The notes: generated by a model not told the origin, from the letters alone. DNA of 64,000 bases from an uncultured Oscillospiraceae bacterium (GCA_947632175.1 CANROC010000014.1:25918-89917); one strand, 5' to 3'. Positions 58,262 through 64,000 are shown, numbered from the stretch's first letter. A program made the numbers and translations.

Positions 58262-59470
<1,209 letters not shown>

Positions 59471-60387
59471 AAATGACTGGCTTTAGAGCCCGCGAAGCGG
59501 GCTCTAAATGCCAAGAGGAACGTGCGAAAAAAGTTTCGGAAATGTCTGCGGACATTTCCGAAACTTTTTTCTGCTGTTTTGCTCCGCGCACGGCCCCGTC
59601 GGGGCCGCACACTCCGCAAAACAAAAGGTATTTTTTCCGACGTACATGCCGCCGGAAAAAATGCTCGGCAGAGAGTTTTGTCCGCTTTCTTCTGATGTGC
59701 GTATTATACCACAAAATGAGTGATTTGTCAAGTATTTTTTAGTATTCGTAAGCAAAAATATGTAGGGGTCGCCGTCCCCGGCGACCCGCCCATCGTTTAT
59801 TGACACGTTTCGTACACCGCCGTACGGGCCGCATCTCCGCGCTAAGAGCCGCCGCTTCGCGGCGGTTGCGCTCCGAAACGCGCCTGCGGGCGCAGGCCCA
59901 CGGCGGCCCTTGCCCCCGATAACCGACATGTACCGTTTTATCGGACCCGTTCCCGTCCCGCAACGTGCCACGGGCGGACACATGGGTCCGCCCCTACGGG
60001 GAATATGGGAGGTTATCCCATTCAGCCGACATGGGAGGTCATCGGAACGCGGGCCGCCGTGGGCGGCGGCCCCTACGGCGTGAATGGGGCTGATGCGGCT
60101 TTTTGAAACCGCTCTGTTATCCAACGCTCGCTGCCCCCCTGCCCCCCTCCTACGAGGAGGGGGCACTAAAACCGGGGCTGGTGCGTTTTATCGGAACCGG
60201 TCCGTCCCACAACCGCGCACGGGCGGGTTTAGAACCCGCCCGTCCCCCGTCCCCGCCGCGCGGGAAAATCAAAGAATGCGCCGCAAGGCGGCGCAAACCT
60301 TTTTAAGCCCCCTCCTCGTAGGAGGGGGGCAGGGGGGCAGCGAAGGTTGGTTGACAGACCGGTCCCGGCGACCCGCATCCGCCCCTC
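59471..60387. repeat. repeat cluster downstream of tuf including promoter-bearing module copy c (minus strand)
   Basis: Minus strand TTGACA (59726-59731), 17 nt spacer, TATAAT (59703-59708). 59695-59945 is an inverted near-copy of 46620-46870, and 59516-59666 is an inverted copy of 36603-36753. Confidence 0.75.
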
Positions 60388-60918
60388 TCATCCTTTCAAA
60401 AATCCCCCCGTGTGGTCCTGCGGGCGCAATGGGAGGCCGCGGGAGATGAGGGAGTCGGCCTTGAGGGCCACCAGGTTCACGTCGGAGGAAAGGGCGGCGG
60501 CGATCTGGTGGGTGTCCCGGCCCTCGCGGATGGCGTCCAGGACGTCCTCGTCGGGCAGGAGGAGCTCGGCGGCGAAGATGTTGGCCTCGTACTCCATGCG
60601 GTCCGTGCCCATCTCGAAGATGTTGAACTCCTGAAAGCCCCCCAGCCGCTGGGCCTCCAGGCGGTGGAGGCAGTGATGCCCCAGCTCGTGGGCCAGGACG
60701 ATGCGCTCCATGGCCGGGTCTAAATCGGATTTGATGAAAATAAAGGGGTTGCGCATGACGATCTTATAGGCGCCCTTTTGCCTCTCAAAGGGCCGCGCCA
60801 GGACCTCCACCCCCAGTGCCGCGCACAGCTCCCCGGGTTCCCGGGTGCCGAACCGCGCCGTGAGCTCCCGGACGCGCTCGGCGATCTCCTGAATTTTAAT
60901 ATACATATCCGTCACCAA
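60388..60918 (-). CDS. ImmA/IrrE family metallo-endopeptidase
   Basis: HEXXH motif LAHELGHHCLH. It lies downstream of its XRE partner. The start is uncertain (TTG 60918 or ATG 60906). Confidence 0.85.
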   Translation of the reverse strand: MVTDMYIKIQEIAERVRELTARFGTREPGELCAALGVEVLARPFERQKGAYKIVMRNPFIFIKSDLDPAMERIVLAHELGHHCLHRLEAQRLGGFQEFNIFEMGTDRMEYEANIFAAELLLPDEDVLDAIREGRDTHQIAAALSSDVNLVALKADSLISRGLPLRPQDHTGGFLKG

Positions 60919-60939
60919 AAACCGAAAAAATCCCGAAAA

Positions 60940-61335
60940 TCAGGACTCTTTCCCGTATTTCCGGTTCTTCTCCTTGGCGATCCAGTAGGCGTCCTGGATG
61001 GCGCGGAGCATCTCGTCCTTGTCCTCGTCGTTGAGCTCCCCGCCGGCGAAGAGGGCCGTGGCCTCCCGCACCAGAGCCTCCGCCTGCCGCCGGCCCGAGG
61101 CGCCGTAGCGCTCCCCGGCCAGGGAGACGAAGTCCTCGTCCTCGGTGAGGAGGTAGTTCACGTCGCACCCGAAGAGGGCCGCCAATCTCACGTAGATCTC
61201 CCGGTTCCGGGGGTAGACCCCCTCCTGCTCGTAGGACCCGTAGGCCCGCCGGGAGATCCCCGCCGCCCGCGCCGCCTCCTCCTGAGAGAGCCGCTTCTCC
61301 GTCCGCAGCGCCTTCAGCTTTTCTCCAAATTTCAT
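60940..61335 (-). CDS. XRE-family HTH repressor-like protein
   Basis: FGEKLKALRTEKRLSQEEAARAAGISRRAYGSYEQEGVYP. Confidence 0.88.
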   Translation of the reverse strand: MKFGEKLKALRTEKRLSQEEAARAAGISRRAYGSYEQEGVYPRNREIYVRLAALFGCDVNYLLTEDEDFVSLAGERYGASGRRQAEALVREATALFAGGELNDEDKDEMLRAIQDAYWIAKEKNRKYGKES

Positions 61336-61349
61336 AGGTCGCCCTCCTT

Positions 61350-61462
61350 GGGAAGTTAAACTTCACAAAATACAAAATTTCCTCTTGACAAGAGAAGTGT
61401 AAACGCCTATAATAGAGCCAGATGGGAAGTTTATTTTCCCATATTGTACATCAAACTTCCCC
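61350..61462. promoter_or_regulatory. divergent control region: consensus promoter plus GGGAAGTTT/AAACTTCCC operator-like palindromes
   Basis: TTGACA (61385-61390), 17 nt spacer, TATAAT (61408-61413) facing the polymerase gene. Palindrome gggaagttAaacttc at 61350-61364. Half-sites gggaagttt (61424-61432) and aaacttcccc (61453-61462) lie just downstream of the -10. Confidence 0.6.
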
Positions 61463-61487
61463 GTCTGTCAAGAGGTGAAACGGAAAA

Positions 61488-62846
61488 ATGCCGTATATCA
61501 GCATTGACCTCAAGTCCTTTTATGCCTCCTGCGAGTGCGTGGCGCGGGGGCTGGACCCGCTGACGGCGAGGCTCGTGGTGGCGGACGAGGAGCGGACGGA
61601 CGGGACCATCTGCCTGGCGGTGTCGCCGGCCTTAAAAGCCTACGGCGTGCCGGGGCGGCCGCGGCTTTTTGAGGTGCGTGAGCGTCTGCGGGAGGTGAAG
61701 GCCCGGACAGGGGAGGACGTGGACTTCATCGTGGCCCGGCCACGGATGGGGCTTTACGTGGACGTGTCCACGAAAATCTACGCCATTTACCTCAAATTTG
61801 TGGCCCCGGAGGACATCCACGTCTACTCCATCGACGAGGTGTTCATCGACGCCGCGCCCTATCTGCGCCCCCGCCGCCAGAGCGCGCAGGAGCTGGCCAT
61901 GGAGATGATCCGCGCGGTCCTCGCTGAGACGGGCATCACCGCCACGGCGGGGGTGGGGACGAATCTCTATTTGGCCAAGATCGCCATGGACATCGTGGCT
62001 AAGAAAATGCGGCCCGACAAAAACGGCGTGCGGCTGGCCAGCCTCACGGAGGAGAGCTACCGGCGGCTTTTGTGGGACCATCTGCCGCTGACGGACTTCT
62101 GGCAGGTCGCCGGCGGCACCGTCCGGCGGCTGGAGAAATTAGGCGTCCACACCATGGGGGAGCTGGCGCGGCTGAGCCTCACGAACGAGGACGCCCTCTA
62201 CCGGACCTTTGGCGTCAACGCGGAGCTGCTCATCGACCACGCCTGGGGGCTGGAGAGCACCACCATGGCGGACATCAAGGCGTACAGGCCGTCGTCCCAG
62301 TCCCTCAGCGCCGGGCAGGTGCTCACCAGGCCCTACCGCTTTGAGGAGGCGCGGGTCGTCATCCGGGAGATGGCGGAGGAGCTGGCCATGGAGCTCATGG
62401 AAAAGGGCCTGGTCACCGATGGCATCGTGGTGCATCTGGGCTACGACCGGGGGAATTTCGACTGGGACGGCCCCAAAAAGGCGGACCACTACGGCCGCTT
62501 CGTCCCCGCCTCCGCCCACGGCACGGCGGGGCTGGCGGGCTTCACCGACGAGCTGGAGCCCATCACCCAGGCGGTGCTGGGACTCTTCGACAGGCTCGCC
62601 AACCGCGCCCTCACCCTGCGGCGGCTCAATTTGGCCGCCATCCGCCTGGAGCGGGAGGGCGAGCGGCCGGAGCAGCTGGATCTCTTCGACAGCTTTGAGG
62701 ACCGGTCCCGCCGCCGCGCCCTCCAGCGAGCGGTGCTGACGGTGCGGGACAAGTACGGCAAAAACGCCCTCCTGCGGGGGCATGACTTTCTCGAGGGCGC
62801 CACCGCCAGGGAGCGCCACGAACAGATCGGAGGACACAGAAAATGA
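61488..62846 (+). CDS. Y-family (UmuC/DinB-like) translesion DNA polymerase
   Basis: MPYISIDLKSFYASCECV...ICLAVSPALKAYGV..., YSIDEVFID. 452 aa. Confidence 0.9.
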   Translation: MPYISIDLKSFYASCECVARGLDPLTARLVVADEERTDGTICLAVSPALKAYGVPGRPRLFEVRERLREVKARTGEDVDFIVARPRMGLYVDVSTKIYAIYLKFVAPEDIHVYSIDEVFIDAAPYLRPRRQSAQELAMEMIRAVLAETGITATAGVGTNLYLAKIAMDIVAKKMRPDKNGVRLASLTEESYRRLLWDHLPLTDFWQVAGGTVRRLEKLGVHTMGELARLSLTNEDALYRTFGVNAELLIDHAWGLESTTMADIKAYRPSSQSLSAGQVLTRPYRFEEARVVIREMAEELAMELMEKGLVTDGIVVHLGYDRGNFDWDGPKKADHYGRFVPASAHGTAGLAGFTDELEPITQAVLGLFDRLANRALTLRRLNLAAIRLEREGERPEQLDLFDSFEDRSRRRALQRAVLTVRDKYGKNALLRGHDFLEGATARERHEQIGGHRK

Positions 62847-63235
62847 ACGAGTATACAGACCTGCGGGACCGGAAACGGGCCTGCTCGCCCCGTCCCCGGA
62901 TGGACCGGGCCGACCGGGCCAAGCTCTTCGCCCCCTACGCGGCCCTGAAGGGCTACAACGAGTCCGCCCACGCCATGGAGCGCCGCCTTGTCCCCCGCCC
63001 CGTTTTGGCGGAGGACCGGGCCGAGCAGCTGGACCGGCGCCTCCGATCCCTCCGGCGCGGCGACCCGGTGACCGTCACCTGGTTTGAGCCGCTGAAAACC
63101 GAAAACGGCCAAGACCTGGGCCAATACCGCACCGCCTCCGGCGTGTACCTGGCCTCCCACCCCGCCTCCGGCGTCCTGGTCCTGGACACCGCCAGGATTG
63201 AGACGGGGAATATTGTGGACGTGGGGACAAGGTGA
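62843..63235 (+). CDS. YolD-like protein
   Basis: 130 aa, translationally coupled to the polymerase (ATGA overlap). ..RAKLFAPYAALKGY.. is typical of YolD-like partners of Bacillus UvrX/YqjW. Confidence 0.7.
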   Translation: MNEYTDLRDRKRACSPRPRMDRADRAKLFAPYAALKGYNESAHAMERRLVPRPVLAEDRAEQLDRRLRSLRRGDPVTVTWFEPLKTENGQDLGQYRTASGVYLASHPASGVLVLDTARIETGNIVDVGTR

Positions 63236-63264
63236 GGCGGCGCCGGTGAACCCGCGTTTTATGG

Positions 63265-63293
63265 TTGAAAACGCCTGCCGCCTGTGGTAAAAT
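63265..63293 (+). promoter_or_regulatory. candidate promoter
   Basis: TTGAAA, 17 nt spacer, tggTAAAAT. Confidence 0.5.
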
Positions 63294-63320
63294 CAGACTA
63301 ACAACAAAGGGGGCGGCGGG

Positions 63321-63902
63321 ATGAGCAGGATCTTTTGTCTGGTGGGGAAGAGCGGCGCGGGGAAGGACACGCTGTACGCGGCGGTGACGGCGCGGTACGG
63401 GGACCGCCTCACGCCCATCGTGCCCTGCACCACCCGGCCCAGGCGGGCGGGGGAGCGCAACGGGGAGAACTACTTCTTCGTGACGGAGCAGGAGCTGCGG
63501 GGCCTGGAGGAGCGGGGCCAGGTCATCGAAAAGCGGGTCTACCAGACGGTAAACGGCCCCTGGACGTACTTCACCCGGCGGTTTTCGCTGCTGGAGAGCT
63601 GCGATTACATCGTCATCACCACTTTAGAGGGGGCGCGGTCCTTCATCCGGGCCTTCGGCGCGGACACGGTGCGGACGGTGTACCTGACCCTGCCCGACGG
63701 CCAGCGCCTGCGCCGCTGTCTGGACCGGGAGGACGCCCAGCCCACCCCCAACTACGCCGAGCTCTGCCGCCGGTACCTGGCCGACGAGCGGGACTTCTCC
63801 CCGGAGGCCCTGGCCTCCCTCCCCAACCTCCGCCCCCTGGACACCTCCTCCGACCTGGCCGACGCCATGCGCCAGTGGGAGGATATCTTCAACGGGGAAT
63901 AA
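63321..63902 (+). CDS. guanylate-kinase-like P-loop protein
   Basis: Walker A GKSGAGKDT, ..TTRP.R.GE..G..Y.FV... Confidence 0.7.
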   Translation: MSRIFCLVGKSGAGKDTLYAAVTARYGDRLTPIVPCTTRPRRAGERNGENYFFVTEQELRGLEERGQVIEKRVYQTVNGPWTYFTRRFSLLESCDYIVITTLEGARSFIRAFGADTVRTVYLTLPDGQRLRRCLDREDAQPTPNYAELCRRYLADERDFSPEALASLPNLRPLDTSSDLADAMRQWEDIFNGE

Positions 63903-63925
63903 TAAGGGCTTTTCAACGCAAAAAA

Positions 63926-63948
63926 GGCCGCCGACGGGCGGTCTTTTT
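63926..63948 (+). terminator. intrinsic terminator
   Basis: ggccgcc-gac-gggcggtc followed by ttttt. Confidence 0.55.
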
Positions 63949-64000
63949 CCGGAATAAGCGGTAATACTAATATCTAATTAAAATAAGACATTCGCGCCGG

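Follow-up and report, generated by a model that had tools for sequence, protein, structure and literature searches.

A candidate LexA-independent mutagenesis cassette under an XRE/ImmA-type switch in an uncultured Oscillospiraceae bacterium

Introduction

Switches that pair an XRE-family repressor with an M78 metalloprotease are already well known, as in ImmR/ImmA, DdrO/IrrE and CapH/CapP. Stress-induced mutation, the emergence of antibiotic resistance included, is driven by error-prone polymerases, whose control is understood almost entirely through LexA. Here we describe a four-gene cassette from an uncultured Oscillospiraceae bacterium in which genes for an XRE repressor and an ImmA/IrrE-type protease lie divergent from genes for a UmuC-like Y-family translesion polymerase and a YolD-like small subunit. 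The cassette is located within a 64,000-nt stretch of DNA, designated the window (G000:C14:25918-89917), of a 3.54-Mb genome (58% G+C, 97.7% complete) whose closest relative found was a rabbit-gut Oscillospiraceae metagenome-assembled genome. A preliminary description of the window had proposed a self-contained, damage-responsive translesion cassette, and the findings below argue for that proposal: no canonical LexA was found, the setting is chromosomal and the linkage of these genes recurs.

Two M78 proteases, CapP (bioRxiv 10.1101/2022.04.27.489752) and PprI (PMC10904395), are activated by single-stranded DNA. Modules of the CapH/CapP type are described as occupying the opposite strand upstream of a variety of operons, chiefly ones for defence. 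S24 regulators that act locally on error-prone polymerases are known in LexA-less lineages and have been called convergent (PMC8565304); in these, HdiR or UmuDAb and the adjoining polymerase make up a minimal SOS-like circuit, and a YolD-like gene is present in the streptococcal elements (PMC8565304; PMC4260502). DUF955 (= M78) peptidases have been linked to ImuB-C/DinB operons, indicating that the family has been recruited to SOS/mutagenesis neighbourhoods (Aravind et al. 2013, PMC3765255). That report was the only partial precedent found; literature searches for ImmA/M78 together with UmuC, Y-family polymerases or YolD yielded no description of an XRE/ImmA-UmuC-like/YolD cassette, its operators or a link to loss of LexA.

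Results

The four genes probably form a self-contained, chromosomal, LexA-independent mutagenesis cassette under an XRE/ImmA proteolytic switch. Gene calls and Pfam searches located all four where the preliminary description had placed them, with the XRE gene and the HEXXH protease gene adjacent on the same strand (Table 1). The XRE gene is the first of the pair, and 21-33 nt separate it from the protease gene, which encodes 176 aa from a TTG start or 172 aa from the likelier ATG at 60906. The protease carries the motifs HELGH and E..EAN, and residues H77, E78, H81, E109, E111, A112 and N113 are invariant among 14 orthologues. Among solved structures its best match was IrrE (3DTE, 8.7e-5), followed by CapP (7T5T, 1.7e-4). 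Pfam detected the M78 domain only; the GAF domain is absent, and the alignment to IrrE ends at IrrE residue 173 of 301.

The polymerase had PRK03103 as its top NCBIfam match (2e-52) and contains the catalytic SIDE motif (SIDEVFID) and a C-terminal QLDLF clamp motif. The overlap of the polymerase stop with the start of the following gene was confirmed as ATGA, and on this basis the 130-aa open reading frame (ORF) is taken to be translationally coupled to the polymerase. The earlier YolD-like call for this ORF was weak when the window protein was considered by itself (Pfam YolD, E=0.17) and was upheld through its homologues. Of 19 homologues, 10 matched PF08863 (best 8e-9), and homologues were found downstream of related polymerases in other genomes, which together identify the ORF as YolD-like. 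YolD/YqjX-type subunits have mainly an N-terminal arm in common (PMC12926913), which fits the weak match.

The whole length of the repressor aligned with that of phage phi106 (9SF2, 5e-5), which was also its top fold match, before SinR, CapH, ImmR and DdrO. In the AlphaFold model (predicted local distance difference test score, pLDDT, 85), a helix-turn-helix (HTH) domain is followed by a long helix (residues 65-97), a short linker and a further helix (residues 103-123). At the junction of these helices lies F96-A-G98-G99, in which F96, G98 and G99 are invariant among 44 homologues. ImmR is cleaved at F95-M96 in the equivalent linker (PMC8960796). Since ImmR cleavage maps to the linker that corresponds to the invariant F96-x-G-G, the specific prediction is that the XRE protein would be cut at the homologous position, near F96.

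The control region between the divergent operons (61336-61487, 40% G+C) contained four promoter-like sites in a pattern scan, against 0.3 expected. The perfect TTGACA-17-TATAAT promoter described for the polymerase (P_pol) was confirmed at 12 of 12 positions. It was the only promoter described; a second, minus-strand promoter that faces it, P_xre, had been overlooked. The -35 box of P_xre abuts the polymerase ribosome-binding site, the two promoters are mirror-symmetric around ~61428, and the transcripts from their predicted starts would overlap by ~17 nt. The RNA polymerase footprints at P_pol and P_xre are predicted to overlap, so that only one of the promoters should be occupied at once.

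The same region holds five half-sites of the GGGAAGT type (s1 to s5), where three had been described. The motifs first reported were present at the places named, and the additions include GAGAAGT within the P_pol spacer (s3). The palindrome formed by s1 and s2 does lie near the XRE ribosome-binding site, as stated, which it abuts rather than covers; its position corresponds to about +70 to +86 of the predicted XRE transcript. The two half-sites said to straddle the polymerase transcription start, s4 and s5, are both downstream of it. This control region was the sole place in the genome with at least four such half-sites within 120 bp, a partly circular result, since the words searched for came from the region itself.

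Conservation provided evidence that is independent of this word set. In nine congeners, whose polymerases are only ~71% identical to that of the window (70-75%, with one at 96%), both promoters had kept their -35 and -10 hexamers and the half-site blocks were likewise conserved, whereas the remaining spacer had diverged. The position and right half-site of the palindrome were kept in nine species, as were the P_pol hexamers with s3; s4 was kept in eight of nine, with a one-base variant in the remaining one, and P_xre reads TGnTATAAT in most congeners. The XRE protein would be expected to bind the half-sites, and the two promoters to compete. An Rfam search of 59300-64000 returned no riboswitch or leader family and a single spurious miRNA match.

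Table 1. Genes and predicted regulatory features of the cassette (window coordinates).
Feature	Coordinates	Strand	Evidence or remark
ImmA/IrrE-type M78 zinc metalloprotease	60388..60918	-	PF06114 (Peptidase_M78, 'IrrE N-terminal-like') E=1e-22
Weak terminator-like hairpin over XRE stop and XRE-ImmA spacer	60924..60952	-	pattern scan; 13 pairs, 4 G-C
XRE-family repressor, 131 aa	60940..61335	-	HTH_31 (2e-9)/HTH_3; N-terminal HTH and C-terminal two-helix hairpin
Candidate operator palindrome GGGAAGT-TAA-ACTTCAC	s1 61350-56, s2 61360-66	.	abuts XRE ribosome-binding site (61343-50)
P_pol, TTGACA-17-TATAAT	61385..61413	+	12/12 match; predicted start ~61420
Half-site s3, GAGAAGT	61392-98		inside P_pol spacer
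Half-site s4, GGGAAGT	61424..61430	+	just downstream of both predicted starts
P_xre, TTGACA-17-TACAAT	61471-61443	-	11/12 match; predicted start ~61436; faces P_pol
Half-site s5, ACTTCCC	61455-61		inside P_xre spacer
UmuC/UvrX-like Y-family translesion polymerase, 452 aa	61488..62846	+	PF00817 (IMS) 4e-26, PF11799 (IMS_C) 3e-12
Divergent YolD/YqjX-like small subunit, 130 aa	62843..63235	+	ATG overlaps polymerase TGA (ATGA)

As the preliminary description had noted, no LexA box was found in the control region, where the best Cheo-box match had 5/10 mismatches; nor were SOS-type boxes of the E. coli, actinobacterial, alphaproteobacterial or cyanobacterial type or the radiation/desiccation response motif (RDRM). 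A LexA-model search found no canonical lexA in the genome, and its cut-off was not reached in any of 19 other genomes of the genus. A LexA-like gene encoding a winged HTH and an S24 domain fell just under the cut-off in 3 of these 19, in each case adjoining the polymerase. Clear LexA was present in 24 of 46 genomes of a family sample (one per genus except G000 and G108, with the window genome G000 included) and in 7 of 12 other families of the order. The recA gene was found in the window genome.

The best match to the LexA model, on contig C41 of the window genome, was rejected, as it is a CI-like XRE+S24 repressor adjoining an integrase. In the first 3.2 kb of this contig that were read (L002, G000:C41:1-3237), the repressor of 217 aa adjoins a 386-aa tyrosine-integrase-like gene. 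It is the sole strong S24 match in the genome, and the region is probably a prophage or integrative element. A second Y-family polymerase, a 441-aa open frame, was located at G000:C23:30284-30727 (L004) and is the genome's top IMS-domain match.

Genome-wide scans for the 13-bp palindrome, for the long inverted repeat and for half-site clusters revealed no such cluster elsewhere, and only the cassette scored. A global, DdrO-like regulon was rejected on this ground, the operator array being found only inside the cassette. The strict palindrome occurs three times in the genome, compared with a rough expectation of ~3 from genome size. One of the other two copies lies within a 447-aa open frame and one by a short unannotated ORF, and neither is beside a recognisable promoter.

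The full four-gene cassette was found in nine congeners (G017, G006, G011, G014, G015, G007, G002, G001 and G108), with identities to the window proteins of 81-97% for XRE, 70-96% for the polymerase, 57-97% for ImmA and 53-94% for the YolD-like protein. In four of the nine it lies beside mnmE, nadE, a lipoteichoic acid (LTA)-synthase-like gene and a tRNA synthetase gene, and in the others in different core contexts; no integrative and conjugative element (ICE) genes were found within +/-8 kb of the cassette in these nine. In a tree of 71 polymerases, the genus copies formed one clade (98% support in the Shimodaira-Hasegawa-like approximate likelihood-ratio test, SH-aLRT), and all of them are XRE/ImmA-linked. 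The cassette has a core-like G+C content of 64-69%. Strict positional orthology was rejected, with at least five contexts among the congeners and a difference on the ImmA side already in the closest relative, G017.

In a sample of 301 genomes of the order, XRE/ImmA is again linked to a polymerase in four other families. The layout is divergent in G141, which has no canonical LexA, and co-directional in G203, G196 and G272, where LexA is present. Among the 80 closest ImmA homologues, surveyed on one-genome-per-species contigs, a Y-family polymerase lay within the available flank at no fewer than 43 loci, a lower bound because many contigs are short. The strong linkage in this neighbourhood survey bears out the association described from the window, and the order of XRE followed by M78 was kept at every locus examined where both genes were found. 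The ImmA-linked polymerases fall into two deeply separated polymerase subfamilies.

Regulators of other types occupy the same position in relatives. Three sister species (G003, G009 and G008) have an S24 self-cleaving repressor divergent from a related polymerase of 45-50% identity and a YolD-like gene; the window has no such repressor. Good Cheo boxes, such as CGAACATTTGTTCT and AGAACATATGTTCT, precede the polymerase elsewhere in the order, in other genera and families. The regulator type changed at least 13 times on the polymerase tree, implying repeated swapping of the regulatory module. In 10 of 10 lineages whose divergent control regions were examined, the facing promoter pair was kept, with the outer -35 ends 84-94 bp apart, and each lineage repeats its own word three to six times (ACGCAA, CACGAC, CACGAA, AAGTTC and GGGTAA are examples). 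A constant layout with words that differ by lineage would be expected if each word is the cognate operator; co-evolving pairs of repressor and operator would give this pattern.

One group of the ImmA-linked polymerases was located in a Tn916-like element (L100:1-12510, L088-L106). In addition to a Tn916 Xis gene and a PemK toxin, the element has a ribosomal-protection gene of the Tet(M) type, sortase and CHAP genes, and an XRE-ImmA pair divergent from a 411-aa Y-family polymerase. Its copies in Pseudoflavonifractor, Hominifimenecus, Brotonthovivens, Yeguia and Ruminococcus, which belong to several Clostridia families, are 96-99% identical.

Cassettes of other lineages contain a small conserved protein with the motif ..YVSVNVDIDE.G...PR.I.W.DGR.F.. 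(L047:2507-2851, L054:8404-8664, L056:7662-8045), encoded by the first gene of the polymerase operon or divergently from XRE and absent from the window. Pfam gave no match for this ORF, nor for the genes that separate ImmA from the polymerase in other families' co-directional cassettes. Between the conserved promoter/operator block and the polymerase gene, G017 (L045:1974-2402), G002 and G108 have a RidA/L-PSP-like ORF (PF01042, 6e-7), which is missing from the window genome; other congeners have in its place a 100-200 nt leader with a conserved GTCC-T-rich-GGAC hairpin. In the window, the terminator-like hairpin between XRE and ImmA (Table 1) may reduce expression of ImmA relative to XRE.

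On the ImmA side, the cassette is flanked by tuf and repeat DNA, with no adjoining integrase. The ~900 bp from tuf to the protease gene (59471-60387) contain no credible gene and consist of GC-rich hairpin units, of which BLAST detected >100 copies on many contigs; these units flank the cassette in G017 as well. On the other side lies a guanylate-kinase-like (gmk-like) gene of 193 aa (63321-63902), which scored well under the NCBIfam guanylate kinase cut-off and has its own promoter (TTGAAA-17-TAAAAT, 63265-63293). A copy that is 69% identical adjoins the cassette of G006 on the opposite side.

Mobile-element genes were looked for past the window edge and are present there: ICE-type genes start ~1.1 kb past the gmk-like gene, just outside the right edge, and are separated from the cassette by that gene. 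This ICE-like region (L001:6400-13600) encodes an HTH_17 excisionase-like protein, an HTH_3 protein with an AbiEii toxin, an ArdA antirestriction protein and an LPD28 polyvalent-protein domain. It extends to the contig end and has a G+C content of 44-60%, compared with 64-69% in the cassette.

Discussion

The arrangement of the locus suggests how the switch may operate. At rest, XRE dimers would occupy the five GGGAAGT half-sites over both facing sigma-A promoters. Because the half-site array covers both promoters, the polymerase/YolD operon and the repressor/protease operon would both be shut and the repressor would be autoregulated. The signal is most likely DNA damage, which, as with ImmA, IrrE/PprI and CapP, would be sensed via single-stranded DNA or a RecA filament. 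The M78 protease would then cut XRE in the linker of its C-terminal dimerisation hairpin, near F96-A-G-G, and XRE would leave the DNA, the consensus polymerase promoter would fire and translesion synthesis would become available; fresh repressor synthesis would reset the switch. Damage induction and repressor cleavage are inferred here from homology and anatomy.

Several observations weigh against this model. IrrE and CapP have a GAF domain that is missing from the protease, and their mechanism of activation may therefore not apply to it. What activates ICEBs1 ImmA is itself unsettled, and ImmA also answers to RapI (bioRxiv 10.1101/2022.04.27.489752, discussion). For a simple dimer operator, half-sites spaced 31-37 bp apart are unusual, which leaves the operator definition uncertain, and the uniqueness of the array was assessed with words defined from the array. 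The position of the cassette differs among congeners and interspersed repeats flank it; the cassette therefore moved or was rearranged, and despite this movement its distribution marks it as a long-standing resident of the genus. Close homologues are carried on a Tn916-like ICE, which makes a mobile origin likely.

The last of these points bears on a rival that the preliminary description had itself raised, namely that the genes simply represent the immunity module of a prophage or ICE. XRE/ImmA would then belong to the adjoining, or a decayed, ICE, the polymerase and YolD-like genes would be cargo, and the switch would govern the element's excision or transfer and not mutagenesis. In the canonical case an ICE is indeed controlled by ImmR/ImmA, ICE-type genes begin ~1.1 kb past the gmk-like gene, and a related XRE/ImmA pair accompanies a different (411-aa) Y-family polymerase inside the Tn916-like tetracycline element. 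We nevertheless consider this explanation quite improbable. In nine congeners the cassette lies by core genes with no ICE genes in the surrounding +/-8 kb, and the genus polymerases form one well-supported clade (98% SH-aLRT). Tuf and repeat DNA, not an integrase, adjoin ImmA, a separately promoted gmk-like gene stands between the cassette and ICE-like DNA of clearly lower G+C (44-60% against 64-69%), and the operator array is confined to the cassette. Conservation in the genus, mostly among housekeeping genes, thus argues that the cassette is not the immunity module of the adjoining ICE-like region.

A real proteolytic switch could also answer to a cue other than DNA damage (infection by a phage, metal or oxidative stress, an anti-repressor or a peptide signal), or the pair could be a COG2856/XRE toxin-antitoxin-like module. 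The closest solved relative of the repressor, that of phi106, is inactivated by the small anti-repressor AimX, ImmA responds to RapI besides RecA, the protease has no GAF domain, and there are weak NCBIfam matches to the spr1629 repressor/antitoxin family. Such a cue seems unlikely when the controlled genes are a translesion polymerase and its accessory subunit and the cassette contains no anti-repressor or Rap-like gene. Moreover, the alternative regulators found in this position in relatives are damage-sensing S24 repressors or LexA boxes, which argues that the demand is for damage induction. It is harder still to credit that XRE is a plain autoregulated repressor, that the protease has an unrelated role and that the polymerase is constitutive or answers to some other regulator not seen here. 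Proteins of the XRE family are very common, and the tie between protease and repressor is drawn from sequence; yet XRE preceded M78 in every cassette examined, and the catalytic motifs of the protease and the C-terminal motif of the repressor are invariant.

If the proposed proteolytic control of mutagenesis is correct, the cassette would explain how LexA-less bacteria still gate mutagenesis, and the switch class of ImmR/ImmA, DdrO/IrrE and CapH/CapP would be extended to a new kind of target. Many gut Clostridia are without LexA, including about half of the genera in the family sample, and LexA was found in 0 of 20 genomes searched in this genus. With four genes and a 150-bp control region, the cassette is a compact, testable system. 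The ICE-borne copies adjoin a tetracycline-resistance gene, which suggests that inducible mutagenesis is itself passed around the gut microbiome. A broader proposal, which we regard as evenly balanced between right and wrong, holds that a LexA-less genus has placed error-prone synthesis under an ImmR/ImmA-type switch as a third independent solution after HdiR and UmuDAb, that the facing promoters form a toggle between repressor and polymerase, and that the cassette, with re-coded operator words, spreads damage-inducible mutagenesis among gut Clostridia on Tn916-like resistance elements.

Each of the known systems resembles the cassette in part. The B. subtilis uvrX-yolD and yqjW-yqjX operons encode the same type of polymerase and small subunit, a putative third type of mutasome (PMC12926913), and are LexA-controlled, unlike the present locus, for which neither a LexA box nor lexA was found. 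The M78 peptidases noted in PMC3765255 occur in ImuB-C/DinB contexts, with no XRE partner, operators or UmuC-like/YolD cassette described. HdiR-umuC of Streptococcaceae and of Tn5252/Tn5253 and UmuDAb of Acinetobacter share with the cassette a local repressor divergent from an error-prone polymerase in lineages without LexA, and the sister species G003, G009 and G008 have exactly the HdiR-type S24 form. HdiR and UmuDAb cleave themselves via the S24 domain on RecA filaments, whereas a separate zinc protease is proposed here.

DdrO/IrrE (PprI) of Deinococcus is a LexA-independent damage response derepressed by a protease, as proposed by analogy for the cassette, and IrrE is the best solved match of our protease. 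In contrast to the cassette, IrrE has three domains, including a GAF-like one, and DdrO controls a genome-wide regulon via the RDRM, whereas the array found here is confined to the cassette. In CapH/CapP, which serves CBASS (anti-phage signalling that is based on cyclic oligonucleotides) and other defence operons, repressor and protease likewise lie upstream of the controlled operon on the opposite strand, and a damage signal in the form of single-stranded DNA triggers cleavage in the C-terminal dimerisation domain of the repressor, as may by analogy occur here. CapP differs in having a C-terminal GAF domain, and its target is an immune operon rather than damage tolerance. The ImmR/ImmA pair of B. 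subtilis ICEBs1 and its phi105/phi106 counterparts resemble the cassette in further respects. Unlike in ICEBs1, the target here would be a translesion polymerase and its YolD-like partner rather than excision and transfer, and in this genus the cassette is chromosomal and has no integrase. In both cases a small XRE repressor precedes an M78 HEXXH protease of ~170 aa that has no GAF domain, a divergent control region serves autoregulation of the repressor (a prediction for our locus), and an HTH domain is joined to a two-helix C-terminal hairpin (as modelled for our repressor) with a conserved phenylalanine at about residue 95/96 in the linker.

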